A stretch of DNA of 64,000 nucleotides. Source: Eubacteriales bacterium. Lineage in GTDB: Bacteria; Bacillota; Clostridia; Oscillospirales; CAG-272. This document shows positions 6,892 through 59,630 of this stretch, one piece after another. The stretch covers positions 21,908 to 85,907 of the forward strand of contig JAZNOM010000048.1 in assembly GCA_045580835.1 (NCBI GenBank). Direction: 5' to 3'. A model generated the notes under the pieces. That model saw nothing but the letters and a program-made list of their open reading frames with translations. It made no database searches and was not told the DNA's origin. A program made the position numbers and the translations under genes. Position 1 is the first letter of the stretch. Every line of letters begins with the position of its first letter.

Positions 6892-6945
6892 GCTGAATCC
6901 TCCGTTTTCGATATAGATTTATATTAGCACAAATATTTCGATAAT

Positions 6946-7830: not shown

Positions 7831-7888
7831 ACATTTGCCTCTTTGAGAGTATATTTTAAAGTAAAAGCATTTATGAACGGAGGATAAA

Positions 7889-8164
7889 ATGCCCGACTTC
7901 AGAATTATAAGAAATAAGCTTTCAAAGTCATTAGAAATACCGGAAGATGCTCTTGGCTCTGCATATCGCTTACAAATAATCGGCAACTGTGCGATACTGT
8001 GCGGTTGTCTGAAACTTTTGAAATACAAAAGCGAAGAAATTTCTGCACTTACCAAGGACAAAACCGTATCCTTTTGCGGAGAACACCTCAAATGCGTATA
8101 TTTTTTTGAGGGAACGCTTGAAATCACCGGCGATATATGTGGCGTGAGGATTGAAAAAAGATGA
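7889..8164 (+). CDS. yqfC: YabP/YqfC family sporulation protein
   Basis: 91 aa of typical YqfC size and sequence style (LEIPEDALGS...LEITGDI), immediately upstream of and overlapping yqfD. Confidence 0.8.
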   Translation: MPDFRIIRNKLSKSLEIPEDALGSAYRLQIIGNCAILCGCLKLLKYKSEEISALTKDKTVSFCGEHLKCVYFFEGTLEITGDICGVRIEKR

Positions 8165-9339: not shown

Positions 9340-9357
9340 TTGCTGAAAGGACAAAGG

Positions 9358-30578: not shown

Positions 30579-31121
30579 ATGGCAAAGTATGTATGTTCTG
30601 TATGCGGTTATGTTCACGAGGGTGACAGCGCTCCCGAATTCTGCCCCCAGTGCAAAGTTCCCGCAAGCAAGTTTGTAGAGCAAAAGGAAGAGATGTCTTG
30701 GGCAGCTGAGCACGTTGTAGGCGTTGCACAGGGCGTTAGAGAAGATATTATTGAAGATCTTCGTGCAAATTACATGGGCGAATGCACCGAGGTTGGTATG
30801 TACCTCGCAATGGCTCGCGTAGCTCACAGAGAAGGCTATCCCGAAATCGGTCTTTACTGGGAAAAGGCTGCTTTTGAAGAAGCAGAGCACGCTGCAAAAT
30901 TCGCAGAGCTTCTTGGCGAAGTAGTAACCGACTCCACAAAGAAGAATCTCGAAATGCGTGTTGAGGCTGAAAACGGCGCTACCATGGGCAAGACCGACCT
31001 TGCAAAGCGTGCCAAGGAACTTGGACTTGATGCTATTCACGACATCGTTCATGAAATGGCTCGTGGCGTGGCTCGCCACGGGAAAGCATTCGCAGGTCTT
31101 CTCAAGAGATATTTTAACTAA
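30579..31121 (+). CDS. rbr: reverse rubrerythrin (N-terminal rubredoxin-like domain plus ferritin-like diiron domain)
   Basis: CSVCGY...CPQC at the N-terminus, ExxH diiron motifs (EEAEHA). The ATG at 30579 follows GGAGG. The last ~10 codons lie in or after the island attL core. Confidence 0.92.
31092..31114 (+). repeat. attL core
   Basis: 23/23 identical to 60336..60358. Flanking codons are synonymous variants of the same [13 protein letters not shown] peptide. Confidence 0.88.
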
Positions 31122-31197
31122 TTTTAGATACATATAAATAAAATTAGGAAAGTCTCGGAAGCCGCATAAAATAAGGCTTTTTCAAGGAATAGACACG

Positions 31198-31236
31198 AAA
31201 CACGATTATCTGTTTTTGGATAATCGTGTTTTTTTG
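31198..31236 (+). terminator. intrinsic terminator downstream of rbr (island-supplied)
   Basis: aaacacgattatc / gataatcgtgttt stem followed by a T-run. Confidence 0.85.
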
Positions 31237-31448
31237 TATCTATTTATATTTTTTCGATACGTGGGCAAACCGTGGGGAAAACGAGAATTTTTATAAAGAA
31301 TTAGTCTTTGCCCACGAAAATCCCGCAACCCCTTGTCAGTGCTGGGCTCACGAGCTCTCAAAATTTTCAAATGTGGGCAAATTTTTGCGCTAAAAATTAA
31401 GATTCCTGCTTTCAAATTGCTACAATGAAAAGTAAAGGAGGAAACTAA

Positions 31449-32636
31449 ATGAAAGGTAGCGTAAGAAAAAGAGGAGCAACTTGGTCATACCGTGTTGAAT
31501 TGGGTGTTGTCCAAGGCAGAAGAAATCAAATTGAGAGAGGAGGTTATCAAACTAAAAAGGAAGCCGAAAAAGCTTTAAACGATGTTTTGTATCAATATAA
31601 CAATACGGGTGATTATATTGAGAATAAGAAGATCACTTTTACCGAGGTGTACACAGAGTTTATAGAGAACGAGGCACCGGCAACAAGGGCATATGCAACT
31701 ATTGTCAGATATAAGTCACTGTATAACAATCACTTCAAGGATAGGTTTGGTCCCTATTATATGTATCAAATCACCGCAAATTCGATAAACGACTTCTTGA
31801 ATGAAAAGCGCACCTATTTAAGTGAGGAATTCGTCAAAGGGCTTTACAAATTTCTAAAGGTGCTTTTCGGATACGCACACAAAAGGCAATATACAAAGAA
31901 AGATATTTTTGAAAGTGTCACCGCTCCGCCTGATCCCCGCCATATCGGCGAAATTCGAGCCTACAGCACAGAAGAACTTGCGTCAATGGAAGAACGCTTA
32001 CAAGGAACAAACGTCATCATTTCCTTTTATATCGCTCTCAACACTGGCATGCGTGAAAGTGAAATATTCGGGTTGCAGTGGAGTGATGTTGATTTTGAAG
32101 CAAAGAAAATCAAAATACATAAGCAACTTTTATTTCAAGATAAAAAGTGGTGTTTTTGTCCTCTTAAAACAAAGAATGCCTACAGAAGTGTCAATATTAC
32201 CGATAGCTTCTGCGAATATCTAAAAAGCTTAAAAGAGCAGCAAGCAAAAAACAAAGTATTCTACGAGGACGGATATAAAAGAAACTTTGTAACAGACCGC
32301 CTTGTACGCAACAAGGAAAAATTGCTTGAAATAACCGATTTTATCAATGTAAAACCAAACGGCGAGATGCTTACTACAAATAGCATCAAGTTTATGGCAA
32401 ATGTCATGAAGAACGAGCTTAACATACCGTTTAAATTTCATAATTTGAGGCACACATTTGCAACTGTTCTTGCAGAAAGCGGTATAAGCCCTAAGTATGT
32501 GCAGGAAACACTCGGACACGCAAAACTCGAATTCACTTTGCGCTACTATACACACATCACCGAAAAAATGGGCAGTGCCGCCAAAGAAGCCCTCGAAGGC
32601 TTAGTTAGTTTTAAAAGCAATAAGGAGAACGATTAG
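31449..32636 (+). CDS. int: tyrosine-type site-specific integrase
   Basis: N-terminal arm-binding style MKGSVRKRGATWSYRV. Catalytic region has R (GMRESE), HNLRHTFAT, LGHAKLEFTLRYYTH. RBS AAAGGAGG. Confidence 0.95.
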   Translation: MKGSVRKRGATWSYRVELGVVQGRRNQIERGGYQTKKEAEKALNDVLYQYNNTGDYIENKKITFTEVYTEFIENEAPATRAYATIVRYKSLYNNHFKDRFGPYYMYQITANSINDFLNEKRTYLSEEFVKGLYKFLKVLFGYAHKRQYTKKDIFESVTAPPDPRHIGEIRAYSTEELASMEERLQGTNVIISFYIALNTGMRESEIFGLQWSDVDFEAKKIKIHKQLLFQDKKWCFCPLKTKNAYRSVNITDSFCEYLKSLKEQQAKNKVFYEDGYKRNFVTDRLVRNKEKLLEITDFINVKPNGEMLTTNSIKFMANVMKNELNIPFKFHNLRHTFATVLAESGISPKYVQETLGHAKLEFTLRYYTHITEKMGSAAKEALEGLVSFKSNKEND

Positions 32637-32637
32637 T

Positions 32638-32970
32638 ATGGATGAATTAGTTTATAACCGAGAATGCTTGGAGTTTATACACCAACGAGGTGGCAAGGTG
32701 TTTGAAAAGTTTGATCTTGTCGTAGGCGCTCTCGTGAGAAATGAAAAGCCAATTATTGACGCTTATGTAAAACATATTTCAAATAAAAAATATAGTGATT
32801 TATACGAAATTTGCTTTCAAGTTTCAGGTAAACTGATAAGAATTCTATTTGCAAATGATGATGCAGAAAATGATATTATATTCTTGCATGCCTTCGAGAA
32901 AAACGATAAAAAGGATACCGACAAGGCATTAGAAATAGCATATAAGAGATTGAAAGCATATAAAACGTAA
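32638..32970 (+). CDS. Gp49-like / HigB (RelE-ParE superfamily) toxin-like protein
   Basis: LYEICFQVSGKLIRILFANDDAENDIIFLHAFEKNDKKDTDKALEIAYKRLKAY matches the Gp49/HigB pattern (LxElR...RilY...vlLhgF.KK..k.p..ei..A..r). Starts 2 nt after the int stop. Confidence 0.6.
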   Translation: MDELVYNRECLEFIHQRGGKVFEKFDLVVGALVRNEKPIIDAYVKHISNKKYSDLYEICFQVSGKLIRILFANDDAENDIIFLHAFEKNDKKDTDKALEIAYKRLKAYKT

Positions 32971-32975
32971 AAACA

Positions 32976-33009
32976 GCACAAGCAGGAGTGGTAATACTCC
33001 TGCTTGTGC
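32976..33009 (+). terminator. strong hairpin after the int/toxin-like unit
   Basis: Perfect 14-bp stem gcacaagcaggagt / actcctgcttgtgc. The T-tract is weak. Confidence 0.6.
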
Positions 33010-33129
33010 GTTATATAGGCCACTATACAGGCTTGCGTTTGGTTTGTACATTTTGCAAATTCAAAAGTTGCGAAATAACTTTCAATATGCTATACTTGTG
33101 TTAAGTATTCTATTAAATTGGAGAATGAA

Positions 33130-35856
33130 ATGCCAAATATCAATAACAATTTGATAATTATAAAAGGCGAAGATAAAACTGCGTCTATACGTAATTTTGC
33201 TTTTGAACAACATAAGCCAGTTGTTTGGATTACATACAATAGTGGTAGACAGTATCCGTATAATACAGATGACGTTATTTTTTTAAAGAACCCAAATGTA
33301 ACAGTAATAAAAGATCAAATCGTTTTAATAAATGGTGTTCCTAAGTCAGGTGTAACAATCGTGCAAGAATTTGAAATGTATTGCAGGTTGATTTTTAAGA
33401 ACAATTATACCGAACTTTGCCGTGCAGCAGAAGTAAAAATAGTTGACTCTGCTTTGAGCAAGCCAGATTCAAAAAGCTGTTTCGAATACTTAAAGGAAAT
33501 AGCATATCAAGTTGGATTGTACACACCGGACGGACACAATATTTTGGGTGCAAGATATTCTAAAATAGATTTTATCCGAGAAGACAGTATTTTAGCTTCA
33601 TTTTTGAGCGGTGAACTTAAAGATAATTGCTATGCGAAAGATAAAACTGCAGTGTTTCCGTTTGGCTTCAATGTAAGCCAAAAAATGGCGGTAGACAATG
33701 CGTTGAATTACAAACTTAGTGTTATCGAAGGTCCTCCAGGTACAGGAAAAACACAAACAATTTTGAATATAATTGCGAATGCCATTATGCGTGGCGAAAG
33801 TGTGGCGGTGGTTTCCAGTAATAATTCCGCAACATCAAATGTATTACAAAAACTTCAAAAATACAATGTTGGATTTATTGCAGCACCTCTTGGTAGCAAG
33901 AAGAATAAAGAAGCATTTGTAGAAAATCAGTCGGCAGATTTGCCAGATATGACATCATGGAAACTTGACACGCTTGAATATTTACAAAAGATACAGACAT
34001 TGCATTCAGAAGCAAAAGCGCTTGATGATGCTTTGTTATTAAAAAACGAACTTTCAAAACTTTCACAAGAGAGTGAAACTGTTACGCTGGAGTCGGAACA
34101 TTTTAGTGAGTACTTAAATAATTTTAATCTGATTTTTAAACCTTCATTTTATAAAGCAAAAGCATCCAGTATTCTTTTATTTGTCGCAGAATACGATTTC
34201 AGTATGCAAGATGGCAGAAAGATCAATTTTTTAAAACGCGCAAAATGGCTTTTAAAATACGGAATAGTTAGTTCAAAGTTTCTAAAAGAACCAGCCGAAA
34301 AAGTTATTTCATATTGTTATAGTTTATATTATAAACGACGTTCTGAGGAGATCGCTAGGCGTATTACCAAGATAGAGAAAGAACTTGCTAAGTATGATTT
34401 TCATAAGAAATTGGAAGAATACTCTGAGTTGTCTGCGGTTCTTTTTAGAGCTAAACTTCAAGAAAAATTCGAAGGCGTTCGTTCGCGATATTTGTATAGT
34501 CAAGATGACTTGTGGAAACATTCCGATCAGTTTATTAAAGACTATCCCGTTGTGCTAAGTACTACATATTCACTTAGAGCAAGTTTGTCAAACCAATTTG
34601 TATATGACTATGTTATCATAGATGAGGCATCTCAAGTAGACTTGGCGACAGGAGCACTAGCGTTATCTTGTGCAAAAAAAGCGATCATTGTTGGTGATTT
34701 GAAACAGTTGCCTAATGTTGTCGATAATGCGCAAAAAAATGCTACAGATGAGATATTTTCAAGGCACAGACTTCCCGAAGTGTATCGATATTCAAACCAT
34801 AGCTTGCTTTCTTCGATAACTGAAATGTTTGATGAAGTTCCGCAAGTTTTGCTAAAAGAGCATTATCGCTGTCATCCGGAGATTATTGGCTTTTGTAATC
34901 AACGTTTTTATAATAACGAATTGATCATCTTAACAGAGGCAAGGCAAGATCGGCAACCAATGATGGTTTATAAAACTGTAGCCGGGAACCACGCTAGAGG
35001 GCATATAAATCAGCGACAGATTGATGTAATAATGAATGAGGTTATTCCGCAGCAGAACTTGAATCTGAACGATGGCTCTGTTGGTATTGTTACACCGTAC
35101 CGAGATCAAGCAGATGCTCTGCAAAGTGCATTTGCTGAAACAAGCGTAAAAGCGGATACTGCTGATAAATTTCAAGGGCAAGAACGTAGCGTAATTATAC
35201 TTTCGACCGTTGATAACCAGATTTCAGAATTTGCATCTGATCCTAATCGTTTGAATGTAGCCGTTTCTCGCGCTATTGATCAGTTTATAGTTGTAACTGA
35301 TGGCAATGACAGCGATGGCACTTCAAATATTCACGAACTTATAGGATATATTAGATACAATAATCATGAAGTTATTGATAGCCAAGTATATTCGGTTTTC
35401 GACTATTTGTATAATAGTTATGCCAAAGAGCGTGAAAAGGTTCTCAAAAAATATGGACGTATATCTGATGTAGAGAGTGAAAATCTAATGTATGCGGTCG
35501 TCCGTGATGTACTTGGAGAAGACCGCTTTTCAAAATACGGTGTGGTATCACACATTCCATTGCACATGATTCTTAATGATATGGAAAAACTCACTCCTGA
35601 AGAACTTAAATTCGCGAGTAATCATTTAACACACGTGGATTTTATGATCTTTTCTAAACTTACACATCTGCCGGTGCTTGTAGTTGAAGTAGATGGTTTT
35701 GCTTTTCATAAACGAAACGAGAAGCAACGTCAGCGAGACATAACTAAAGACACTATTTTAGAAAAATATAACATTCCTGTGCTGCGACTGAGTACTGTGG
35801 AAAGTCAAGAAAAAGAACGATTGATAGAAGCGCTTTCAAAAACTATCGATTTATAA
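33130..35856 (+). CDS. SF1 (Upf1/DNA2-like) helicase fused to a C-terminal DUF2726/DUF559-like PD-(D/E)xK nuclease domain
   Basis: Walker A GPPGTGKT, Walker B VIIDEASQ, GDLKQLPNVV, HYRCHPEII, VTPYRDQ, KFQGQERSVIILS. C-terminus has HVDFMIF...VVEVDGFAFH...R. The ATG at 33130 follows GGAGAA. Confidence 0.88.
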   Translation: MPNINNNLIIIKGEDKTASIRNFAFEQHKPVVWITYNSGRQYPYNTDDVIFLKNPNVTVIKDQIVLINGVPKSGVTIVQEFEMYCRLIFKNNYTELCRAAEVKIVDSALSKPDSKSCFEYLKEIAYQVGLYTPDGHNILGARYSKIDFIREDSILASFLSGELKDNCYAKDKTAVFPFGFNVSQKMAVDNALNYKLSVIEGPPGTGKTQTILNIIANAIMRGESVAVVSSNNSATSNVLQKLQKYNVGFIAAPLGSKKNKEAFVENQSADLPDMTSWKLDTLEYLQKIQTLHSEAKALDDALLLKNELSKLSQESETVTLESEHFSEYLNNFNLIFKPSFYKAKASSILLFVAEYDFSMQDGRKINFLKRAKWLLKYGIVSSKFLKEPAEKVISYCYSLYYKRRSEEIARRITKIEKELAKYDFHKKLEEYSELSAVLFRAKLQEKFEGVRSRYLYSQDDLWKHSDQFIKDYPVVLSTTYSLRASLSNQFVYDYVIIDEASQVDLATGALALSCAKKAIIVGDLKQLPNVVDNAQKNATDEIFSRHRLPEVYRYSNHSLLSSITEMFDEVPQVLLKEHYRCHPEIIGFCNQRFYNNELIILTEARQDRQPMMVYKTVAGNHARGHINQRQIDVIMNEVIPQQNLNLNDGSVGIVTPYRDQADALQSAFAETSVKADTADKFQGQERSVIILSTVDNQISEFASDPNRLNVAVSRAIDQFIVVTDGNDSDGTSNIHELIGYIRYNNHEVIDSQVYSVFDYLYNSYAKEREKVLKKYGRISDVESENLMYAVVRDVLGEDRFSKYGVVSHIPLHMILNDMEKLTPEELKFASNHLTHVDFMIFSKLTHLPVLVVEVDGFAFHKRNEKQRQRDITKDTILEKYNIPVLRLSTVESQEKERLIEALSKTIDL

Positions 35857-36242
35857 AAAATGTAGAGAACATAGTATTAACAATTTTGTTACTGACGGTA
35901 AACATTTTAATCCGTTATAATTGTCGAATACGTCGTAAATGAAAAGGCAACTGTTTACGTTTTGACGACCTATTTGAAGCGCAGTATAGGTGTCTGTTTA
36001 ATCTGGATAAGATGGAGAGAGTGTTACTTGCACTTTCTGACGGCAATGTAGATAATATTAAGGCATTTGAAAAGCATATTAAATACTAAATTCAGATTGT
36101 GAATTAATTGAAATTGATTATGAATTCTTTTATAATTGCTATAAAGATAGTTTTAGGAATAAACGCTTCGATCACAAAAGAAATATAACAAACTAATAGT
36201 TGTTTAACCAAAAGCCGAAAAGCAGTGAATAATAATCATGCT

Positions 36243-36272
36243 GTCACAGGTTCGAGCCCGGCAGGGGGAGCC
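36243..36272 (+). other. degenerate tRNA 3'-end-like fragment
   Basis: gtcacaGGTTCGAGCCcggcagggggagCC resembles a T-loop plus acceptor 3' strand, but the T-stem does not pair. It is followed by hairpin agagacaaac/gtttgtctct plus a T-run (36277..36326). Confidence 0.3.
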
Positions 36273-36942
36273 GAAAGAGACAAACGCTTTTTATAATATA
36301 GTTATAATGATGTTTGTCTCTTTTTATATGCAAATTTCATAGCATTTCTGTTTAATAATATACAGGATGAACAATCAGAATTGAAAGTCTAAGGGTAAGC
36401 AAGATATTCATAACATCATAATGGTAATGTTTAAAAATTTAATACTATAAATTATGAGCACATTTGAGTGAAATCAAGATGTGCTTTTATATTTTTAAAA
36501 TTATAAGGAGGAAGTTAAAATGGTGGAATTGGATTTGTATGAATCAAGATTGTTCGGTAGGATTTGTTACGGTTTGGTAGAGATGAAAAAGGATATGCTT
36601 ATATCAAAGATAATGAAATTAATGTGGTTTGAATGATTTATGATATATCCATTTTCGTATGATTTGCAAGAAGTTCTGAAATTCATATCTTAGATATAAA
36701 ATTCTATTTTTTGACCAGAATTAACCTCGATGCATTTAACAATATTTTTTATAAATGGTTCAAAATTATGATTCATATTTAATTCTCTTAATGTGTGCCA
36801 AATACTTATAGTTTTATCAAAAACATCCCTTGTCAACTTATCTTTTCCTAAAGGAGATTTAATTACCCTGCTGTGTAATTCTGCCGGAATATTCTGCAAG
36901 CTGTGACCATTGATAGATAGTATATATTTTTCACTGCTCTCA

Positions 36943-36971
36943 TTGATAAATTAAGAAAAATATGGTATAAT
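36943..36971 (+). promoter_or_regulatory. sigma-A promoter of the caspase/TIR operon
   Basis: TTGATA (36943-48), 17 nt, TATAAT (36966-71) with an upstream TGG (extended -10), 35 nt before the ATG. Confidence 0.7.
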
Positions 36972-37005
36972 GTAAAAAAATCTCAAGAAACGCAAGGAGA
37001 ATCCA

Positions 37006-37974
37006 ATGAGAAAAGCCTTAGTTGTAGGAATTGATAATTATTCTTCTTGTCCACTAAATTGTTGTTGTAATGATGCAGATGATATGGCAAGGATTTTATC
37101 TAATAATGGTGATGGTTCAGCTAATTTTGTAGTGAAGTTAGAAAAAGATGTTAGTAAGAAAGCGGATTTAAGGAGATTAATCGAAGAGTGTTTCTCAGGA
37201 AATTCAGATGTTGCGCTATTTTATTTTTCGGGACATGGGCATATAGATGCGGTGGGAGGATATCTTGTAACACCCGATTATAGTAAATATGATTGTGGAG
37301 TATCGTTGCAGGATATATTGACTATTGCAAATAATTCAAAATGTAGAAATAAGATTATCATTTTAGATAGTTGCTATTCAGGATTTATGGGGGATATCAA
37401 TACAAGCGGTCAAAGCACAACTATAATTAATGAAGGTGTAACTATATTAACAGCAAGTCGTTCGACTGAAACATCTATAGAGGTCAATGGGCATGGCTTA
37501 TTTACGTCATTGTTGATAGAAGCTATGGAAGGTGGAGCAGCTGATATTACTGGGCACATAACTCCAGGTGGAATATATGCATACATAGATAAAGCATTAG
37601 GGCCTTGGGAACAAAGACCTGTGTTCAAAACAAATGTTACTAGATTTACATCATTGCGTAATGTAGTTCCAAGAGTAGATATGGCTGTTATCCGAAAAAT
37701 ATGCGACTATTTTAATAGGGAGGATGAAAGATTGCCGCTTAATTCATCTTTTGAACCAACTAATACTCCAAATGCAAAGCATGAAATTTTAGAACCTTAC
37801 GCAGATGAAAATAATGTAAGAATATTTTCGGATTTGCAAAAATTAGAAGGAATAGGATTAGTTGCTCCAGTTGAAGAAGAGCATATGTATTTTGCAGCAA
37901 TGAATTCTAAATCATGTGAATTAACATCGATCGGAAAACAATATTGGCGACTAGTTAGTAAGAATTTAATATAA
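37006..37974 (+). CDS. caspase-like (peptidase C14) protease with an uncharacterised ~120-aa C-terminal domain
   Basis: ALVVGIDNY, catalytic His in LFYFSGHG, catalytic Cys in IILDSCYSG. RBS AAGGAG. Confidence 0.9.
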   Translation: MRKALVVGIDNYSSCPLNCCCNDADDMARILSNNGDGSANFVVKLEKDVSKKADLRRLIEECFSGNSDVALFYFSGHGHIDAVGGYLVTPDYSKYDCGVSLQDILTIANNSKCRNKIIILDSCYSGFMGDINTSGQSTTIINEGVTILTASRSTETSIEVNGHGLFTSLLIEAMEGGAADITGHITPGGIYAYIDKALGPWEQRPVFKTNVTRFTSLRNVVPRVDMAVIRKICDYFNREDERLPLNSSFEPTNTPNAKHEILEPYADENNVRIFSDLQKLEGIGLVAPVEEEHMYFAAMNSKSCELTSIGKQYWRLVSKNLI

Positions 37975-37986
37975 AGGAATTGTGCT

Positions 37987-38376
37987 ATGGCAAAGAAAAG
38001 AAGTTTTATAAGTTTTGATTATGATAATGATAGTGATTTGAAAGCGTTATTAGTAGGACAAGCAAGGAATTCAGACTCCCCATTTTCAATAGCCGATATG
38101 TCAATTAAACATAAAATTGAAAAAGATTGGAAAGATAATGCCAGAAAAAGAATAAAAGGCTGTGATGTTGTTATTGTTATATGCGGAACAAAGACTCATT
38201 TAGCAACAGGCGTAGGCACCGAAATTAAAATAGCACAGGAAGAGGGAATACCATATTTTTTGCTTTGTGGAAGAAGCGATAAGAAATGTACCAAACCTAA
38301 AGAGGCAAAAAATGATGACAAAATGTATAGGTGGACATGGAATAATTTAAAACTACTTATTGGAGGTTCACGATGA
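37987..38376 (+). CDS. TIR-like protein (DUF1863 / ThsB-like)
   Basis: SFISFDYDNDSD ... CDVVIVICG ... GVGTEIKIAQEEGIPYFLL pattern of the MTH538/DUF1863 TIR-like fold. Confidence 0.8.
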   Translation: MAKKRSFISFDYDNDSDLKALLVGQARNSDSPFSIADMSIKHKIEKDWKDNARKRIKGCDVVIVICGTKTHLATGVGTEIKIAQEEGIPYFLLCGRSDKKCTKPKEAKNDDKMYRWTWNNLKLLIGGSR

Positions 38377-38837
38377 AAATTTTTGTTTCGCATAAAAGAG
38401 AAGATGCAATAATTGCAAATGCTATAGCTAATGAATTAAAACGGTTAGGAATTAGCTGCTATCTTGATTTATTGGATGCGGGCATGGTACTTAATGGTAA
38501 AGCCCTTACAGAACATATAAAACGCAATTTGAACAATTGCACTGATATTATAGTTGTAATGTCTGAGAACACTAGATATTCACAATGGGTTCCTTTTGAG
38601 GTTGGTATGTCTGCACAGAAAGATATGCCAACAGCTACATATCTAAAGGAGGATGTGGATTTGCCAAGTTTTTTAAGCTACTGGCCCCGGTTGAAAAAAC
38701 TTTCAGATATTCAGAAGTACGTATCAGCACGCAACGAAGTAAAAAGAGAGTATATACATAAATCCTTATTTGAAAGTGCTTCAGTAACTAGATCACAAAC
38801 TGACAGATTTTATGAGGTTTTGAAACAAAGACTGTAA
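38373..38837 (+). CDS. TIR domain protein
   Basis: KIFVSHKREDA ... LKRLGISCYLD ... IIVVMSENTRYSQWVPFEVG (the W..E segment carries the usual catalytic Glu position). ATGA overlap with the upstream gene. Confidence 0.82.
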   Translation: MKIFVSHKREDAIIANAIANELKRLGISCYLDLLDAGMVLNGKALTEHIKRNLNNCTDIIVVMSENTRYSQWVPFEVGMSAQKDMPTATYLKEDVDLPSFLSYWPRLKKLSDIQKYVSARNEVKREYIHKSLFESASVTRSQTDRFYEVLKQRL

Positions 38838-38852
38838 AGAAAGGAAGACAAA

Positions 38853-39806
38853 GTGGGGTTTAAAGCAAGAGTATATAAAATTTTTATTTCTTCTCCTAGT
38901 GATGTTTTGGAAGAAAGAACTGCAATAAGAAGACAAATAGATAAATGGAATGCGATACATTCAGAAAAAGAAAATATAATTTTGTTACCGGTTAGTTGGG
39001 AAACGCATTCGGTTGCGCAAGCAGAAACACATCCGCAGAATTACATTAATGAAGCTATTTTATCAAATTGTGATTTACTTTTGGGTGTTTTTTGGTGTAG
39101 GGTTGGAACTCCGACACCAAGAGAAAATAGTGGTACAATTGATGAAATAAAGACACATATTCGAAGAAAAAAACCAGCAATGATATTTTTTTCTAATCAA
39201 GAGAAACCCCGTAATTCTGATTTGGCTCAGATAAATGAAATTGAAAAATTCAAAAATGAATTTAGGGACAAGTGTTATTATGTGGAATATAGCAATATAA
39301 TTGAATTCGAAAGTGTTGTGTACAAACAAATAGAGTTGTTTGTGAATTCTGGAAAATTACATGTTTATTATGATTCTGATGTCACTTCTTTGATTGAAAG
39401 TGATTCGAAATTAGCAAAACAAATATCAGAGAGATTTCCTATAGTAGCTAAGAGAGTGTTGAGTAAAATCATAGATGAAAAGCATGATGAATGTGTTTGG
39501 GATGCAATAATAAAAAAATTAGAAAAAAGTCCGGCTGATTTAAGGGATGCGTTGTACTTTATGACAGACAGAGGGGCTTTTTTACATCCTGCTTTTGAGA
39601 AAGGGTATATAACATTAGCAAAATGTTCGGAGGTGGATTATTTTAGTTTGCTGACATATGTTTATACTGTTAATTCATTCACATTTAAACATATGTATAC
39701 CAATAGTCCTCTATCTGACGTGGCATTATCCAATCAAATTAAAGCAATTATAGATAAAGATGAATATATTGAACATAAAATTAGAGAAACATCACTGTTA
39801 GATTGA
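38853..39806 (+). CDS. DUF4062-like (TIR/deoxyribosyltransferase-like fold) protein with an unknown helical C-terminal half
   Basis: YKIFISSPSDVLEERTAIRRQI ... CDLLLGVFWCRVGTPT. GTG start 7 nt after GAAAGGAAG. Confidence 0.65.
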   Translation: MGFKARVYKIFISSPSDVLEERTAIRRQIDKWNAIHSEKENIILLPVSWETHSVAQAETHPQNYINEAILSNCDLLLGVFWCRVGTPTPRENSGTIDEIKTHIRRKKPAMIFFSNQEKPRNSDLAQINEIEKFKNEFRDKCYYVEYSNIIEFESVVYKQIELFVNSGKLHVYYDSDVTSLIESDSKLAKQISERFPIVAKRVLSKIIDEKHDECVWDAIIKKLEKSPADLRDALYFMTDRGAFLHPAFEKGYITLAKCSEVDYFSLLTYVYTVNSFTFKHMYTNSPLSDVALSNQIKAIIDKDEYIEHKIRETSLLD

Positions 39807-39964
39807 TTTAGTTTTAGCTGAAAACGTCTTGGTATATAATTCATTATTTTGCACTTTCATCTGTCCACTAATATTGACAAGTTTCGAGAAGGTGGTTTTC
39901 CAAGAGTGAAGCGAGATATTTCACTAAAAATATAAATATTCTTATGGTTCGGCTTTCCCATGAA

Positions 39965-39990
39965 AGAGATCGCTTCGCGGTCTCTTTTTT
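39965..39990 (+). terminator. intrinsic terminator (copy 1 of the duplicated terminator/promoter module)
   Basis: agagatc gcttcgc ggtctct followed by TTTTTT. The module is repeated at 45882..45942. Confidence 0.75.
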
Positions 39991-40115
39991 CGTTGTTTAC
40001 AATGATAATTACGATGTACTGTGGTATAATTTTTATAAAAAGTTGGATTTTTGTCACAAATGACATTTTGGCTCGTTATAATTAGTGTCCGGACAAAATG
40101 GAAAGGAGCGGTGGT

Positions 40116-40616
40116 ATGCCTAATAACGAAGAAGATATCATTGATAGTTTGTACAAGCTATATGAGCAATCAATGTATTATGAGGCTTATAAAATACTGC
40201 ATGACGAATACCTTGCAGAGGATGCGGTACACGAAGCATTTTTGAGATTGATACGAAATAGAGACAAAATTAGCAATCCTTCTTTTCACGAGGTGCGGAA
40301 TTATGCATATAAGACTTTAAAAAGTGCGGCACTTGATATATACCGAAGACAGAAAAAGCAGCGAGAGAATTGCTGCGAAAGCATAGAGACCGCTGAATCT
40401 TTATTTAATGACGATAATGAAAATTCAAATGACATAGTTTTATTGATTTCGGAACTGCCGCCTAAATATGCTACGGTTATGCGATGCTTGTTTATTAGAG
40501 GGCTGAACATACACGAAACTTCAGCGGTACTACAGATCAGTGAAGCATGCATACGCAAAAGATGCGAGCGTGCCAGAAAACTTTTGAAACGCATTAAAGA
40601 AGACAAGGAGGATTAG
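40116..40616 (+). CDS. sigma-70 family (ECF-like) RNA polymerase sigma factor
   Basis: Region 2 (AEDAVHEAFLRLIRN) and region 4 HTH (LNIHETSAVLQISEACIRKRCERARKLLK). The ATG at 40116 is 8 nt after AAGGAG. Confidence 0.82.
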   Translation: MPNNEEDIIDSLYKLYEQSMYYEAYKILHDEYLAEDAVHEAFLRLIRNRDKISNPSFHEVRNYAYKTLKSAALDIYRRQKKQRENCCESIETAESLFNDDNENSNDIVLLISELPPKYATVMRCLFIRGLNIHETSAVLQISEACIRKRCERARKLLKRIKEDKED

Positions 40617-40618
40617 TC

Positions 40619-41908
40619 ATGGAAAACAACCATGTTTTTTCTGAATCTTATGAGAAAAGAAAAAAAGCCGTGCGTGCAGCATTGCAGCAAGAGTGCATAT
40701 CAGCTGAAACGTACAGACAAAGGTGGTCAGTCAGACTGGTTGCCGTGATAGCTATATTGGCAATATTATCAATTAGTATATATGCGGCTGCTCGCTGGAT
40801 TGAGTTTCGAGTGGAACAAAAAGGTAAAGATGTATTTGTGCATGCAGGTATTATGCAGGCGGAAAATAGTGTTTACGAAGAAAAGCCGCTGCGTAGTTGG
40901 AGAGCAGAGAACGGAGAAGTCAGCGTCAAACTTAACATCCCCGGAATGCCTGCAGATATGCTTGAAGACAAAACTGCACCCGGAAAATGGCATGGCAACG
41001 ATGATTCACGCGCGATTACTATTAATGGTATTGACCTTCGCCGTAGTGATTTGAATACAGTTGTTGGAGATGCAAAAGAAACAAAGAGCCTGACAGCAGG
41101 AGAAAATGCCGTCTATGTTATTGAAAAGGGTGAAACTTCTTTTTATAGCCGTATAGCATTTGTAGTATTTGAGGAAGAAGAACTTGTACTGAAAATTTGG
41201 GTGAGTTACGGAATCAATGAGGATGAGTTCTTGAAAATAGTATCTACTATCACCGTTGAGCAAGCGAAGAGCACGGCGCTTGCAATCCCGATTATGAACG
41301 AAATAGTAACCGCAGATAATTATATACCAGAGATTGTTCATACTGAAAAAGCGTCTATATTCGTATCGGATCTGTCGAAAATCGGCGACTCGGTTCGTGA
41401 CATAGAGGATTGGTATACCGTTACTGTTAATACTGTCAGCGTGTATGACAATACGGCAGCACTAAATTCTGAACATATTATTGCAAAAGATAAGCTCGGA
41501 AAGTTTACAGATGATAGCGGCAATTTGATAGCTTACAAACGAACGCCTATAATTTATAACGAAGATGGTACTAAAGGATTTGGAGAATCGGTTTCGGTGA
41601 AGAAGCGATTATATTTCATAACAATTAGCATGGAAGACATTGAGAAAAATCAAGAACTAATATATGCGTGTGTAAACGGATTCAGTTTGCGCGGATATAC
41701 AGAAGAAAATGGTGAAGTTAAGTTTATTTCCGATAATTCGGTAATAGATGCGAAGCCACAAAATCATGCTATGACAACAGAACTTATTTACCGCGAATAT
41801 TTAGGAAACGATAGGTGGAAGATTGCGTATCTGGTGGACGAAGATATTAGCCAAGGAAATCTTGCACTCGTAAGCCAAACAGGAAAAGTTTATATAAAAA
41901 TTCAGTAG
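40619..41908 (+). CDS. membrane-anchored protein, putative anti-sigma factor
   Basis: Starts 2 nt after the sigma gene. Short cytoplasmic N-terminus, one TM (LVAVIAILAILSISIYAA), large extracytoplasmic domain. Confidence 0.55.
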   Translation: MENNHVFSESYEKRKKAVRAALQQECISAETYRQRWSVRLVAVIAILAILSISIYAAARWIEFRVEQKGKDVFVHAGIMQAENSVYEEKPLRSWRAENGEVSVKLNIPGMPADMLEDKTAPGKWHGNDDSRAITINGIDLRRSDLNTVVGDAKETKSLTAGENAVYVIEKGETSFYSRIAFVVFEEEELVLKIWVSYGINEDEFLKIVSTITVEQAKSTALAIPIMNEIVTADNYIPEIVHTEKASIFVSDLSKIGDSVRDIEDWYTVTVNTVSVYDNTAALNSEHIIAKDKLGKFTDDSGNLIAYKRTPIIYNEDGTKGFGESVSVKKRLYFITISMEDIEKNQELIYACVNGFSLRGYTEENGEVKFISDNSVIDAKPQNHAMTTELIYREYLGNDRWKIAYLVDEDISQGNLALVSQTGKVYIKIQ

Positions 41909-41938
41909 AGCAAAAGAGCCGCAAGCAAGGAAGCCTCT
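41780..41938 (+). repeat. 159-bp direct repeat, copy A (3' end of the 40619..41908 gene)
   Basis: Hand alignment with 45707..45865 gives 12 mismatches and no gaps. Confidence 0.85.
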
Positions 41939-42325
41939 CATCCGAGAGGCTTCCTTGCTTCTATCCTACTGTAAAACAAGTGGTCTCTTGATGCAGTTAG
42001 CGCTATAAAAATTACCGAGTATAGCGACAGATTGGAAGCCAAAATGCGGAAGCGGAACAAAGCCGCAGCCGCCATATTATAATGTCTAAAAATTACGCGA
42101 TAATATTGATAAAGTAGATTTTTGGACAGATTCTTTTAGGAAGAAAGATAAGTTAAAGGATAGTATGATTGCGAAGTTAAGCAGCCCCATATATGATATA
42201 TTTATTTTTACACCTACAATGTCGCGAGAGGAACGGAGAAAGGCACTAAGAGCATTTGTTTTTGATGAACCATACAATCATATACGGTAAAATTGTAAAG
42301 CTAACAATAATTTGATACTCGTAGT

Positions 42326-42375
42326 CAACAAAAGGAAACTGTGAATGATGTTACAGTTTCCTTTTGTTGTTTTTG
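42326..42375 (+). terminator. intrinsic terminator after an ORF remnant
   Basis: Perfect 17-bp stem caacaaaaggaaactgt / acagtttccttttgttg followed by a T-run. Preceded by a start-less reading frame ending at 42290 (...SREERRKALRAFVFDEPYNHIR*). Confidence 0.8.
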
Positions 42376-42523
42376 CTGGGGTGCTTTCAATAGAGCCAAA
42401 ACATATTTTTATACGTAACATGCGGCTTGTTTTCTATAACTATGGACAATATTTTGATTTTTTGATATTATTATGTATAAATATGTCGTAGGAGTGATTG
42501 TCTTGTTATTCATCTACTTACAA

Positions 42524-43027
42524 ATGATAGAGACGGACGAGGATAAATCCAAGTTCGAACAAATATATAAAGAGTATAAGGGACTTATGTTTCATGTAGC
42601 ATACGAGAGAATGCATCACGTACAGGACGCAGAGGATGCTGTACATCATGCTTTTGTTAAAATCGCTGAAAATATTAAAAAAATCGATCCGGTGAGTCCA
42701 AAAACGAAGCAGCTTGTCGTAACTATTGTTGACAATCGGGTTACTGATGTTTTTAGAGTAAGAGGCAGACACCCGGAAGAGGTGTACGAAGATGCGTTAA
42801 TAAATAAACTGTCAACACAGGATTTTGAAGAAGATTTTCTCACGGAATGTATCTTTAAACTTCCTGATCAGCAGCGACAGGTTATTTGGCTAAAATATCA
42901 TCATGGTTATGATCTGCGTGAAATTGCTAAGATGATTGGCGTTTCTCTTGTATGGGCACAGAAGATAGACCAGCGTGCAAAGAAAAAGCTGAAAGAATTG
43001 TATGAGCAAGGGGGTGGGAATATATGA
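42524..43027 (+). CDS. sigma-70 family RNA polymerase sigma factor
   Basis: MIETDEDKSKFEQIYKEYKGLMFHVAY..., region 2 AEDAVHHAFVKI, region 4 LPDQQRQVIWLKYHHGYDLREIAKMIGVS. The internal ATG at 42524 is preferred over the hydrophobic upstream extension. Confidence 0.82.
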   Translation: MIETDEDKSKFEQIYKEYKGLMFHVAYERMHHVQDAEDAVHHAFVKIAENIKKIDPVSPKTKQLVVTIVDNRVTDVFRVRGRHPEEVYEDALINKLSTQDFEEDFLTECIFKLPDQQRQVIWLKYHHGYDLREIAKMIGVSLVWAQKIDQRAKKKLKELYEQGGGNI

Positions 43028-43701
43028 TTACCGATGAAATGCTACGAAGAGCTGCATCAAAGTCTAACGAGATTTATGTAAACTATTTTGAAAGCACATA
43101 TAATCCCGAACTTCAGCATGAATTTTCTTTAGAATTTGAAAAGAGAATAGAAAAATTAAAACGAAAAGTAAGGCATCCATATTTCTATAGCCCCTTAAAG
43201 CGAGTTGCTTCTGTTATACTTGCGCTTGCTATTTCAATCAGTGTATGGCTAGCTGTAGATGCCAAGGCAAGAGAAGCTTTCTTTGGTTGGATTAAAGAAG
43301 TATATGAAACATATTTTGTATATAGATATACTGATAACAAAAAATCTGATGTTTCGCCTGCAAAGTATCAATTAATGGGTATTCCTGATGGATATACAGA
43401 GGTATTTGTTGATGATAACGAAAACTACTATATAGCAATATACGTGGATGATTCAGGAGAAATGTTGACATTTAAGTATACCAATAATCCAAATGAAACG
43501 GAATGGTATGTAAATGCTTCACAAATGCAGAAAAAGCAGGTTTATGTAAATGGTTACTTTGCAGATTTGCTAATTTCTACAGACCCTTCGGTGTCTAATA
43601 TTATTCTTTGGACAACTTCTAAAAATACAGCTTTTTACATTTCGGCTTTCTTGAGTGAAAATGAATTGATTAGACTTGCGAAAAGCGTAAAAGAAAAATA
43701 A
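43024..43701 (+). CDS. DUF4367-like membrane protein (putative anti-sigma partner)
   Basis: Overlaps the sigma gene stop by 4 nt. One TM (VASVILALAISISVWLAV), C-terminal beta-rich domain typical of DUF4367 partners of this sigma type. Confidence 0.7.
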   Translation: MITDEMLRRAASKSNEIYVNYFESTYNPELQHEFSLEFEKRIEKLKRKVRHPYFYSPLKRVASVILALAISISVWLAVDAKAREAFFGWIKEVYETYFVYRYTDNKKSDVSPAKYQLMGIPDGYTEVFVDDNENYYIAIYVDDSGEMLTFKYTNNPNETEWYVNASQMQKKQVYVNGYFADLLISTDPSVSNIILWTTSKNTAFYISAFLSENELIRLAKSVKEK

Positions 43702-51976: not shown

Positions 51977-53692
51977 TCATCCATTGAAATTAGTGGTGTG
52001 CGTACTAAATAGTTTCAGTATTTTAGGGAAATTAATTGACTTCATAAAATGTTCATAATTGTGGGAATCATACCTAGCGATTTTAAAAAGAGGAAGCCAC
52101 CACTTTGAATACATGATTTCCGATTGCCAATGGGTTGATCCTGTTTCCTTAATATAATGATCTTTGATTGAGCAGAATAAATCTTTATTCATGTTTTTAC
52201 CCGGTCGAACCATAGATGCTGCTATTAATGGATTGTATTGTTTTATCTTGAATTCGGAAATCATATGAGTTTTTTGCGTATCGGAAGAATGTTTGAATAG
52301 TATATAATAATACCAAATTTGCAAAAGTGTATCGGGATATTCGGTGTCTATCTTTTGCTGTTTATGCAACAAGGCGTTAAGAAGTGGATCTTTGTCAAAA
52401 GCTATGTTTAATAGAGTATCTAAAAGTCTGTACACATGACTTGACAATGAAACGTCTTCAAATCCTAGTTTTAATAAAAAGTAAAAAAGTTCATCAAATA
52501 TATCTTCGGGCGATAATTTTTCTGCTTCAATCTTTTTTTGCATTAGGCTGAGTAACGCACGTAGTTGTGAGGTACGGCTTTCACGAAGGCATTGACTAAT
52601 ATACTTTTTTAATGCAAAAAAGTCATCGAGATGCAGATTTTGAGTTTCTTCTGATAATTTTAGTTTAGGAAATTCGTGCTCTAACTCAGAGAGGTACGAG
52701 TGTTGAGCTGAATACACTGCGTGGCTTGTTTCGGTTTTGTTCCCATTTATACGAAGGCGATATTGGTTTAAAATCGATTGTATAGCGGGGTAGAGTGCAG
52801 TTAGTTCGCTCTCTGAATCGCTGAAAAAAGTAAGATCATCTACATAACGAACGTATCCGACAGGATGAGTTGTCCTCGAAAGAAGATTGCGAATTTCTTC
52901 GTCTACAGAAAGCATGCAGAGTTCTGCTGCTACATGTGAAGAAAAAGTGCCTGCTGGAATTCCTTTAGTTTGGTTATTATTTATACGTTGATGAAAAAGA
53001 TCAAGAAAACGGAAATAACGAGAATCTGCGTTAAAAGAGGTAAAGGGAGCTTTGTTTGCGATTTTTTCAAAATTATGTGTATAAAGATTAGGAAAAAAAG
53101 ATTCGACATCTAGTTTTAGCGTATATAGGTAGTCCGCTTCTGCTGCTAATAATCTTTTTTTGTTTTCGTTTAAAACGGAGGAACTGTTAATTTTATTGTT
53201 TTTAGTAGTAAAAGTTCCTGCTAAAACCCAGTCTTCCTCTTCATCATATGAGTGAAGAAGAAACGCCTCTTCAAATACTAGGTATGAATTAGAGTTTTTA
53301 ACTATATGCTCGTTGGCGGGATTAATATAGAGTTCTTCAAAAATTGAAGAAAATTCAAATAGTGTATTGTACATGAAAGATATGTAGTGAACAAGATGTG
53401 GAATTTGCATTTCCCGAAGGCTTTTGTTTTTCTTAAAATCAAAAAAACTAACAGCCTCTACGCCTGGACGGCGGATATGTATGGGAGAGACGATGCATTT
53501 GTAGTTAGTAATAAAGCCGTCAGGATCTTGTTCGTATTCTTGAGCATTTTGTGTATTGATTTCGTCAAATATGCTATCTATGTCAAGGATTAATTCGTTT
53601 ATATCTAGTATGTTTGGAAGCTCGGTGTACCACAGACCTGTAAGTAATAGTTCGGCATTTTTACGATAATTTTCAAAATTTAAATCAATCAT
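51977..53692 (-). CDS. standalone reverse transcriptase, Abi/DRT (defence-associated) type with an alpha-helical C-terminal domain
   Basis: RT motifs LDVESFFPNLYTH, GIPAGTFSSHVAAELCM, YVRYVDDLTFF (YxDD), LRINGNKTE. No maturase, endonuclease or intron features. The ATG at 53692 is 4 nt after GGAGGG. Confidence 0.88.
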   Translation of the reverse strand: MIDLNFENYRKNAELLLTGLWYTELPNILDINELILDIDSIFDEINTQNAQEYEQDPDGFITNYKCIVSPIHIRRPGVEAVSFFDFKKNKSLREMQIPHLVHYISFMYNTLFEFSSIFEELYINPANEHIVKNSNSYLVFEEAFLLHSYDEEEDWVLAGTFTTKNNKINSSSVLNENKKRLLAAEADYLYTLKLDVESFFPNLYTHNFEKIANKAPFTSFNADSRYFRFLDLFHQRINNNQTKGIPAGTFSSHVAAELCMLSVDEEIRNLLSRTTHPVGYVRYVDDLTFFSDSESELTALYPAIQSILNQYRLRINGNKTETSHAVYSAQHSYLSELEHEFPKLKLSEETQNLHLDDFFALKKYISQCLRESRTSQLRALLSLMQKKIEAEKLSPEDIFDELFYFLLKLGFEDVSLSSHVYRLLDTLLNIAFDKDPLLNALLHKQQKIDTEYPDTLLQIWYYYILFKHSSDTQKTHMISEFKIKQYNPLIAASMVRPGKNMNKDLFCSIKDHYIKETGSTHWQSEIMYSKWWLPLFKIARYDSHNYEHFMKSINFPKILKLFSTHTTNFNG

Positions 53693-53748
53693 ACTGCCCT
53701 CCATAATTTGCATTAAATCATTTGCCACGAATGTATACTTATGATATC

Positions 53749-56192: not shown

Positions 56193-57146
56193 ATGAGTTC
56201 GTTATTTATAGTTGGAAACGGATTTGATATTGCGCACGGTATTCAAACAAAGTATAGCGACTTTAGAACTTTTATTATAAATATGTTCCCACGAGCATTT
56301 GAGTTGCGAGACGAAATTGTATACCTGGAGGACTTCAAAAACATCGATTTAGCGGAATTTGCAGCGGAGATTTTGTTAAATGCAATGGATAAAGCTGCCG
56401 GTGAAGATTGGTTTAATTTTGAAGAAGCACTTGCTTATGTAAATTTTGACAACAAATTTCCATTACCTAATCACAGAGAAGATGAAACAGATGAATAAGA
56501 TCAGATGTTAATGACACGTTATCTATTATATATGGATATATTAACCGATTGCTATATTAAGTGTTCAAAGACATGGCAAGATTTTTTCAGGTTATGGATC
56601 AAAAGCATTCAAGCAAAAATTAACAATGGCAACTTCTCTGCAAAGGAATCATTAAAAGAACTTTTTAACGCTCCAGATATGCAATTTTTCAGTTTCAACT
56701 ACACCAAAACTTTACAAAAACTTTATGGAGTAAAAAAGGTGATTCATATACATAACCGCGTTGGACAAAAATTAATTTTTGGGCATGAAAAACGTGCTAC
56801 CGAAAGTCTTTATCAAAATATAAATTTTGACAAAGGAACATGTATTGGCTCTACTTTTTTAGATGACATGATTCTTTCTTTAAAAAAAGATACGGATTCC
56901 CCATTGAAAAAATATAATGATTTTTTCAGAAAACTAGATGGAAATATTGACAAAGTATATTCTTATGGATTTAGTTATGGAAAAGTTGACAGCATTTACA
57001 TTAAAAAGATATTAGATGGAATTTCGCCTAACGCTGTTTGGTATTTCACAACTTTTGAATCCAAAAATACTGAAGCGTTTAGAATTAAAAAAATCAAATT
57101 ACGAAATTATGGGTTTAAAGGTCAATTTGGTATTTATACAGGATAA
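56193..57146 (+). pseudogene. abiH: AbiH family abortive-infection protein interrupted by one in-frame TAA
   Basis: LFIVGNGFDIAHGIQTKYSDF is the AbiH N-terminal signature. ORFs 56154..56498 and 56505..57146 share a frame, separated only by the TAA at 56496..56498. Combined length is 318 codons. Confidence 0.78.
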
Positions 57147-59144: not shown

Positions 59145-59630
59145 TTATTTAATTTCTTTAGCTTCTAAAAACTTTAGATAAGAAAGAGCTTTGTTTGTAT
59201 GCAGAGTCCATTGATCATGCAATACTTCTGTCTTAAGCTTTTTTACAGTATATTCAGCATCATAAGCACCTGTTTCAAAAAGGCGAATAGATTGATATAT
59301 ATTATCATCAGCCACGGGGCCGATATACAAATCATGTATTACTGTGCTTTCAGCTCCTTTGCGATTGCTTACTACAAAATCTAACCAATTTTCATCGGCT
59401 GTTTTAAATTCTTCAAAGCTAAGCTCGCCTCTTGCTTTCTCAAAGTCAAATTCATAAACTGATACATATCCAATTTTAATATTATTTCTGCGCATTTTTA
59501 TTCTTGCCCAACGCTCAGCTTGTTCGTATGAAGTAGTAGTATAAAAGCCAACACCAAAGTCTAAATATACATCGCCCTTTCGTATCTCCGGTTTATCAAC
59601 AAGATCAGTGCTGCCATGATATAAAATCAT
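59145..59630 (-). CDS. DUF3990 family protein
   Basis: MILYHGS...DFGVGFYTTTSYEQAERWA is the typical DUF3990 N-terminus. Overlaps the upstream gene by 4 nt. Confidence 0.75.
   Translation of the reverse strand: MILYHGSTDLVDKPEIRKGDVYLDFGVGFYTTTSYEQAERWARIKMRRNNIKIGYVSVYEFDFEKARGELSFEEFKTADENWLDFVVSNRKGAESTVIHDLYIGPVADDNIYQSIRLFETGAYDAEYTVKKLKTEVLHDQWTLHTNKALSYLKFLEAKEIK

Follow-up and report, generated by a model that had tools for sequence, protein, structure and literature searches.

A type IV Thoeris cassette with two ThsB genes and a downstream DUF4062 gene in a defense-rich region of a Clostridia genome

INTRODUCTION

Does a caspase-like protease gene that is followed at very short distances by three genes of the TIR superfamily encode one antiphage system or more than one? 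The question is raised by a locus in a 64,000-nucleotide (nt) stretch of DNA, hereafter the window, from Eubacteriales bacterium (GTDB lineage Bacteria; Bacillota; Clostridia; Oscillospirales; CAG-272), which spans positions 21,908 to 85,907 of the forward strand of contig JAZNOM010000048.1 in the NCBI GenBank assembly GCA_045580835.1. A sequence-only reading of this locus, whose genes we call g1 to g4, had taken the protease for a signal-activated effector, the three TIR-superfamily proteins for parallel sensors or synthases, and the whole for a possibly undescribed variant of Thoeris defense.

Type IV Thoeris was defined by Rousset et al. (10.1101/2024.10.24.620036; Science 2025). Its TIR protein makes N7-cyclic ADP-ribose (N7-cADPR), by which promiscuous arginine-specific proteolysis is switched on (10.1101/2024.10.24.620036); we use the name ThsE for the caspase-like effector (10.64898/2025.12.03.692087). 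DUF4062 proteins, on the other side of the question, are TIR-like NAD+ hydrolases (Osinski et al., 10.64898/2026.05.01.722283). As a single-gene abortive-infection system named Swarozyc, they are activated by the phage portal and require a catalytic glutamate (E97) and a C-terminal auxiliary domain (10.64898/2026.05.01.722283). Here, we report that the core of the locus (g1 to g3) is a Clostridia-borne type IV Thoeris that has two genes for ThsB proteins, which involves no new principle, and that g4 is probably an independent single-gene defense module that acts apart from the caspase and merely shares its transcript.

RESULTS

g1 as the caspase-like effector ThsE

Residues 1 to 178 of the g1 product match the Pfam family Peptidase_C14 (E = 8.5e-18), and residues ~200 to 322 have no match in Pfam or NCBIfam. 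Comparison with the validated type IV systems relied on Table S2 of Rousset et al., which contains PsTIR as a complete gene, PsCaspase as its first codons and EcTIR as a 399-nt stretch (10.1101/2024.10.24.620036). Fourteen complete Escherichia coli genomes have a gene that matches the EcTIR fragment at 100% identity; in strain 165, a 321-amino-acid (aa) "caspase family protein" is encoded 10 nt downstream of this gene, inside a lambdoid prophage. The caspase beside the gene identical to the fragment was taken as the EcCaspase reference. In a BLASTP alignment, g1 is 44% identical to this protein over residues 1 to 319 (E = 3e-85), and the alignment continues unbroken through the C-terminal domain (residues 200 to 319). 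The PsCaspase start, MRKALVVGI, is identical to that of g1. In addition, a g1 homologue of 48% identity occurs in Alicyclobacillus acidiphilus NBRC 100859 (L072), a genome that Table S1 lists with type IV Thoeris (10.1101/2024.10.24.620036). On account of these matches to EcCaspase and PsTIR (see below for the latter), the shared start and the Table S1 listing, we assign g1, by sequence, as orthologous to the type IV Thoeris effector ThsE, and g2 as a ThsB of the PsTIR class.

The catalytic dyad, H77 within FSGHG and C123 within DSCYSG, is invariant across 82 aligned family members, EcCaspase included. In the same alignment, the mean identity to the reference is 56% in the C-terminal domain versus 58% in the protease domain. 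A motif at the junction of the two domains, WEQRPVFKTN (residues 201 to 210; window positions 37606 to 37635), is likewise invariant in these 82 ThsE-family sequences, which share 44 to 99% identity, and is a candidate ligand-coupling element of ThsE. The C-terminal domain itself would be the family's putative N7-cADPR sensor. The sequence-only reading had proposed an intact C14 dyad, a signal-activated effector of Thoeris type and a ligand-sensing C-terminal domain, all of which agree with full-length orthology to a validated effector; its description of g1 as a short single-domain caspase does not, g1 being a standard two-domain ThsE of ~320 aa. A sequence search of the PDB returned no ThsE-like chain, the only match being metacaspase-9 at E = 0.02.

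The E. coli strain 165 pair (L091; NZ_CP020509.1, 3886579-3887956) has the lysis cassette on one side and the gene for the Q antiterminator on the other, which is a typical moron position.

g2 and g3 as ThsB proteins of two classes

The g2 product matches Pfam ThsB_TIR (formerly DUF1863; E = 1.2e-8) and is 31% identical to PsTIR over its full length (E = 4e-16). Its E79 aligns with E79 of PsTIR, the glutamate that Rousset et al. mutated (E79Q), and is retained by 90% or more of the 61 members of this class. The TIR mutant is named PsTIR E89Q in their Methods and E79Q in their Table S2 (10.1101/2024.10.24.620036). The mutant sequences carry the change at residue 79 (KWEIQ to KWQIQ), and our numbering follows these Table S2 sequences rather than the Methods. 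We thus designate g2 as thsB-1, encoding a short ThsB of the PsTIR class with E79 as the predicted catalytic residue.

The g3 product belongs to another class. It matches Pfam TIR_2 (E = 2.9e-11) and PADLOC ThsB (E = 6.9e-12), retains E76 and the W72/P74 motif in common with at least 90% of 27 class members, and has a C-terminal extension of ~70 aa. Its reading frame is intact at 42 to 71% identity across lineages. We designate it thsB-2, a second ThsB of the TIR_2 class with E76 as the predicted catalytic glutamate. Profile hidden Markov model (HMM) searches thus bear out the domain assignments previously made from the sequence alone for all four genes (C14, DUF1863/ThsB-like TIR, canonical TIR and DUF4062), and the family matches and conserved glutamates identify g2 and g3 as bona fide TIR/ThsB proteins.

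Caspase-TIR neighborhoods in related genomes

A scan of one genome per species yielded 386 relatives of g1, and neighborhood counts refer to the best 80 of these 386 loci, which are full-length matches to g1 at 46 to 99% identity and represent many bacterial phyla as well as archaea. For a census of TIR partners, open reading frames (ORFs) were called around the caspase gene in the 80 loci and searched with iterated TIR profiles. At least one TIR ORF lies within 1.6 kb of the caspase gene in 76 of the 80 loci, and two or more stand beside it in 31. These partners sort into three classes, namely, g2/PsTIR, EcTIR and g3. The g3 class is nearly always the second TIR beside the caspase, and in one locus (L020) it is the sole one. 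The array of caspase (322 aa), TIR (129 aa) and TIR (~155 aa) is found again at 52 to 77% caspase identity, its short gap and 4-nt overlap unchanged.

Multiple TIR genes are also on record for type IV Thoeris, since Table S1 of the original study has an "Additional TIR" column (10.1101/2024.10.24.620036). That entry is filled in for 11 of the 27 Firmicutes rows, and consecutive gene identifiers for a caspase and two TIRs are given for Clostridium roseum and Ruminococcus sp. NK3A76 (10.1101/2024.10.24.620036). Given this column and the 31 loci of our own census, a caspase with two TIRs is an already catalogued type IV Thoeris layout and not a new one. The idea of an undescribed three-TIR architecture is therefore not sustained. 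The neighborhood is conserved in related genomes as far as the caspase-TIR pair and the g1-g2-g3 array are concerned; g4, which is absent from 79 of the 80 loci and from the abundant cassettes of gut metagenomes, is not part of it.

In human-gut metagenome contigs (L001 to L010; positions 1000-9836), the caspase-TIR-TIR array is the last cargo of an integrative mobilizable element of ~10 kb, which also carries genes for an integrase, a NikA-like protein, AAA_25, Mob_Pre and helix-turn-helix proteins, and a type II methyltransferase and restriction enzyme. The element is inserted at several distinct chromosomal sites. Its caspases, for which the index of the collection lists 392 and 465 blocks, are very common in human-gut metagenomes.

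g4 as a rare DUF4062 protein with stand-alone relatives

The g4 product matches Pfam DUF4062 (E = 1.6e-7; 31.8 bits versus a curated cut-off of 24.7) and the PADLOC profile PDC-S60 (E = 1.5e-26), the latter over profile positions 3 to 191 of 906 only. E98 is invariant in a seven-sequence alignment. An AlphaFold 2 (AF2) model with a predicted local distance difference test score (pLDDT) of 74.9 comprises a five-stranded alpha/beta domain (residues 6 to 146) and an all-helical C-terminal half. When this model was compared with the PDB by Foldseek, only generic flavodoxin-like, small-GTPase and 2'-deoxyribosyltransferase matches emerged (E of ~1e-3 or weaker), with none for the helical half, and a sequence search of the PDB found no relatives of g4. 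NAD+ hydrolysis by g4 is predicted from the DUF4062 family.

Close relatives of g4 are few. A word-indexed search of 5.8 billion proteins found six, and an exhaustive HMMER search of 1.84e9 cluster representatives with residues 170 to 317 gave 15 matches at E <= 1e-3. Most of these 15 are ~305 to 315 aa long, several of them with a DUF4062 N terminus. The N-terminal module is common and the C-terminal module specific, because the matches to 191 records of DUF4062 proteins from plasmids and to 16 viral contigs are confined to residues 1 to ~215 of g4. A single-protein query for metagenome loci returned none and a narrower alignment query one (L117); the contigs of the C-domain relatives are mostly 1 to 2 kb long.

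Beside a caspase gene, g4 was found only in cassette copies of ~95% identity (L011 and L094 to L096). Its more distant relatives stand alone: P0122 (65% identity) between a giant cohesin/dockerin gene and topoisomerase genes, P0124 (41%) directly after three serine recombinases, and the L117 protein (38%) with a membrane transferase gene on one side and convergent dCTP-deaminase-like genes on the other. Neither a caspase nor a TIR gene is near the g4 relative at these three loci, and two further relatives on short contigs have oppositely oriented neighbors. These stand-alone relatives, at 38 to 65% identity, make autonomy of g4 probable, although in the window the gene shares an operon with Thoeris. 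At L117, the genes convergent to the g4 relative (positions 2344-3505, minus strand) encode a dCTP-deaminase-like protein (Pfam DCD, E = 2.2e-19) and a 209-aa protein, which may be another defense pair.

The slot that g4 occupies has other contents elsewhere. Copies of the Thoeris cassette are found 11 nt downstream of a type II restriction enzyme gene, and in L016 (also L017) the cassette stands beside AbiL, with AbiLi/AbiLii upstream. In the same two loci, a 614-aa ORF (L016:9861-11705) without Pfam or PADLOC matches starts 8 nt after the second TIR, i.e., in the position of g4. No 3' flank shared between the three-gene cassettes and the sequence after g4 was found. Tight spacing does not imply shared function here, because the cassette is packed equally tightly against unrelated systems in other genomes. 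What follows the second TIR differs between copies, and this element typically has independent systems stacked in it.

Operon signals, mobility and surroundings of the cassette

The coordinates of the cassette and of its surroundings are compiled in Table 1. As previously described, g1 and g2 are separated by 12 nt, g2 and g3 overlap by 4 nt (ATGA), and g3 and g4 are separated by 15 nt; a purine-rich ribosome-binding site precedes each of the four genes. The proposal of one good promoter holds in part. The promoter-like site exists, scores best in the region, ends 35 nt 5' of the g1 start and is also kept in the related cassettes L011 and L094. However, the promoter is plausible rather than proven, because the total of such sites in the region (17) is no higher than that expected in shuffled sequence (18.6). 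The hairpin downstream of g4 is the sole terminator-like site within positions 36500 to 40200, and an Rfam search of positions 31000 to 42500 gave no RNA family match. The GC content of the cassette is 0.329 versus 0.419 in positions 1 to 31000, close to the earlier rough estimate of 30% versus 43%.

TABLE 1 Features of the cassette and its surroundings in the window (protein domains are given as residues)
Feature	Position	Strand	Remarks
Mobile cassette, ~3 kb	36913-39972	+	Promoter, four genes and 3' tail
Promoter-like site, sigma-70 type	36943-36971	+	TTGATA-17-(TG)TATAAT; 11/12 matches, TG extension
g1, thsE	37006-37974	+	322 aa
g1 protease domain	residues ~1-198		H77/C123
g1 C-terminal domain	residues ~200-322		ThsE specific
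g2, thsB-1	37987-38376	+	129 aa
g3, thsB-2	38373-38837	+	154 aa
g4, DUF4062 TIR-like gene	38853-39806	+	317 aa; GTG start
g4 predicted NADase domain	residues ~6-146		Glu E98
g4 C-terminal domain	residues ~174-315		Rare, all-helical
Intrinsic-terminator-like hairpin and T-run	39962-39988	+	12-pair stem, 5 G-C pairs; closes the operon
Remnant of large serine recombinase gene 3' end	36646-36899	-	Inverted; abuts the left end of the cassette
Tyrosine integrase	31449-32636		Upstream of the cassette
Helicase-DUF2726 gene	33118-35856	+	912 aa
Imperfect 33-nt direct repeat	31286-31318 / 40028-40060		73% identity, first 12 nt identical
ECF-type sigma genes	40098-41908; 42473-43701	+	Each followed by a putative anti-sigma/DUF4367 gene
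Reverse transcriptase gene	51977-53728	-	583 aa
AbiH-like ORF	56505-57146	+	213 aa
DUF3990 gene	59145-59630	-

The cassette is mobile as a unit. By blastn, window positions 36913-39888/39914 are 94.7 to 95.7% identical to L011, a Clostridia metagenome-assembled genome from roe deer rectum, and to L094, L095 and L096, with unrelated flanks; weaker homology extends to 39972. In L011 and L094, an intact serine recombinase gene runs straight into the cassette (L094:995-1136, L011:646-791). The corresponding stretch of the window (36646-36786; 141 nt) is inverted and 88 to 89% identical to the recombinase 3' end and junction of these two copies. A short core, ATGGATA/ATAGATA, is found at both breakpoints, which suggests a site-specific rearrangement.

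The locus had also been placed in an integrase-bounded defense island. One boundary stands, in the form of the tyrosine integrase upstream; no second integrase was found downstream among the ORFs scanned. The imperfect 33-nt direct repeat brackets the integrase, the helicase and the cassette, and could be an att pair of an 8.7-kb island or a chance occurrence in AT-rich DNA. An empty-site search for the island ends found no exact match on record for the downstream sigma factor. The helicase, a superfamily 1 enzyme (AAA_11/AAA_12) fused to a C-terminal DUF2726 nuclease-like domain, has its best PADLOC matches in MkoC/MkoA (Mokosh; E = 2.9e-51) and PDC-S37, and is probably a further defense gene of this low-GC island. 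The cassette is directly followed by two sigma genes of the extracytoplasmic function (ECF) type with their anti-sigma-like neighbors, in a region of still reduced GC content (0.37).

Farther downstream, the reverse transcriptase matches the full PADLOC profile RT_UG31 (E = 2e-98), which represents a defense-associated class. The AbiH-like ORF matches the C-terminal part of AbiH only (profile positions 139 to 318 of 343) and may be truncated, and the DUF3990 protein matches PDC-M13A and PDC-M10A (E = 4.5e-54). With these matches and the Mokosh-like helicase, the region is rich in defense genes and low in GC, as had been described, and the label "defense island" is fair.

DISCUSSION

The order of the genes, the identities of their domains, their orthology to validated proteins, catalytic-residue conservation and neighborhood statistics, all observed here, make it quite probable that the cassette combines a type IV Thoeris (g1 to g3) with a separate DUF4062 defense gene (g4) under one promoter. 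In the mechanism that we infer, which extends to the signal molecule, the protease specificity, and the NADase activity and independence of g4, ThsB-1 and ThsB-2 would detect phage infection and convert NAD+ into N7-cADPR, as expected from their family. The signal would bind the C-terminal domain of ThsE, whose His77/Cys123 protease would then cleave many cellular proteins after arginine, with abortion of the infection as the outcome. Most likely, two differing ThsBs would widen the range of phages sensed, by analogy with type I Thoeris loci that have several ThsBs. Independently, g4 would sense a phage component through its helical C-terminal domain and hydrolyze NAD+.

Several observations weigh against this interpretation. 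For N7-cADPR output, the activation of the protease and the NADase activity, we extrapolate from relatives at 31 to 44% identity, and N7-cADPR synthesis by a TIR_2-class ThsB-2 is putative. The AF2 model of g1, built with 28 homologues of 72 to 96% identity, has a mean pLDDT of 61 and falls below 50 in the C-terminal domain, for which reason it supports no statement on ligand binding. Informative contexts for g4 relatives number only about five, because the subfamily is rare. Furthermore, g4 lies 15 nt from g3 with no promoter-like site of its own in the promoter scan, and all four are carried as a set in three or more genomic contexts; co-regulation of g4 with the Thoeris genes, and hence some functional link, is possible.

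The single promoter, the short g3-g4 gap and the movement of the four genes into different contexts as one 3-kb block of ~95% identity are what an integrated four-gene system would predict, in which three TIR-superfamily proteins serve as parallel sensors or synthases that feed the caspase one signal. The authors of the Swarozyc study also point to DUF4062 proteins that lie in operons with other defense enzymes and may exceed NAD+ hydrolysis (10.64898/2026.05.01.722283). We nevertheless judge this alternative quite unlikely, since g4 is missing from 79 of 80 caspase-family loci and from the abundant gut-metagenome cassettes, its relatives manage without a caspase or TIR, and the characterized DUF4062 protein yields ADP-ribose and nicotinamide instead of a cyclic signal and has a sensor domain of its own. 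The role of a third parallel sensor, as first proposed for g4, is thus hard to maintain. Predicted cotranscription could alternatively mark g4 as a second effector, or an amplifier, that acts downstream of either the Thoeris signal or the protease, e.g., an autoinhibited NADase freed by ThsE cleavage or by N7-cADPR. Such a role would fit DUF4062 proteins being autoinhibited oligomers that require an activating input, and g4 having a rare C-terminal domain. Yet the co-occurrence is confined to one recent lineage, and stand-alone genes, whose activation must do without ThsE, have this two-domain architecture as well. This explanation, by which one sensing step would have two killing mechanisms, is the most improbable of those considered. 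Taken more broadly, wiring of the DUF4062 protein into type IV Thoeris, be it as a third noncanonical sensor/synthase or as an NADase branch that responds to the signal or to cleavage by ThsE, is unlikely, and functional coupling of g4 to the caspase has no support.

A different doubt concerns g3, which might regulate ThsB-1 or serve as its adaptor, or be a duplicate that has decayed, rather than act as a second signal synthase. Members of its class are found almost exclusively as the second TIR, next to a gene of the PsTIR or EcTIR class, neither validated system uses this class, and the extra tail has no domain match. The preserved E76 and W72/P74, the frame kept intact across lineages and the locus in which a g3-class protein is the only TIR beside the caspase (L020) speak for a working ThsB, and we regard a merely regulatory or decayed g3 as very doubtful.

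Under the preferred interpretation, a Thoeris core plus a separate g4, the interest of the cassette lies in its components. The TIR_2-class ThsB-2 represents a third class of putative type IV Thoeris sensor and provides a test case for phage recognition by multiple ThsBs. g4 defines a very small DUF4062 subfamily with a helical C-terminal domain, which would be a new phage-sensing module if g4 is a Swarozyc-like NADase. The cassette also illustrates that two NAD-linked abortive-infection systems, that of g4 being predicted, can share one promoter and be mobilized by serine-recombinase elements. Should coupling of g4 prove true, the locus would instead be a composite "caspase + NAD-depletion" system, with the rare helical domain as a new kind of sensor.

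Among known systems, type I Thoeris reportedly includes loci with multiple thsB genes, in which divergent TIR sensors share one effector. Several ThsB sensors are thought to broaden phage recognition in that type. The locus described here resembles these arrangements in that divergent TIR genes share a single effector, and differs in that the effector is a caspase-like protease and not the SIR2-SLOG protein ThsA. No gene for a ThsA, SIR2, SLOG or Macro effector was found in the operon or its flanks, where only weak STALD-like matches inside g2 appeared; Thoeris types I and II were rejected for lack of a SIR2, SLOG or Macro effector there. With PADLOC PDC-S60, g4 shares the DUF4062 region and linker (the first 191 profile positions). 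Full membership in that family was rejected, as 21% of the 906-position profile is covered and g4 has 317 aa.

g4 also resembles Swarozyc. Both have an N-terminal DUF4062 domain with a conserved glutamate (E98 in g4, E97 in KpSwz), a helix and a C-terminal accessory domain, and g4 relatives are stand-alone genes on mobile DNA, with N-terminal relatives common on plasmids and prophages. In KpSwz, the auxiliary domain binds the phage portal through a beta-hairpin and an alpha-loop-beta motif (10.64898/2026.05.01.722283). The C-terminal half of g4 is set apart by this description, being predicted as all-helical and belonging to a very small family, and for that reason probably represents a sensor differing from the KpSwz type. 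Unlike Swarozyc, g4 is embedded in a Thoeris operon.

The closest match of the locus as a whole is type IV Thoeris. It shares with that system a caspase-like effector that has two domains and ~320 aa (44% identity to EcCaspase), a short PsTIR-class TIR next to the effector with aligned catalytic glutamate, the optional additional TIR of Table S1, and an occurrence on mobile elements and defense islands. The cloned Ps and Ec systems have the TIR before the caspase, unlike the order caspase, TIR, TIR found here and listed for Clostridium and Ruminococcus, and their validated TIR classes do not include the TIR_2 class of the second TIR. What distinguishes this locus from type IV Thoeris otherwise is the DUF4062 gene that follows on the same predicted transcript.

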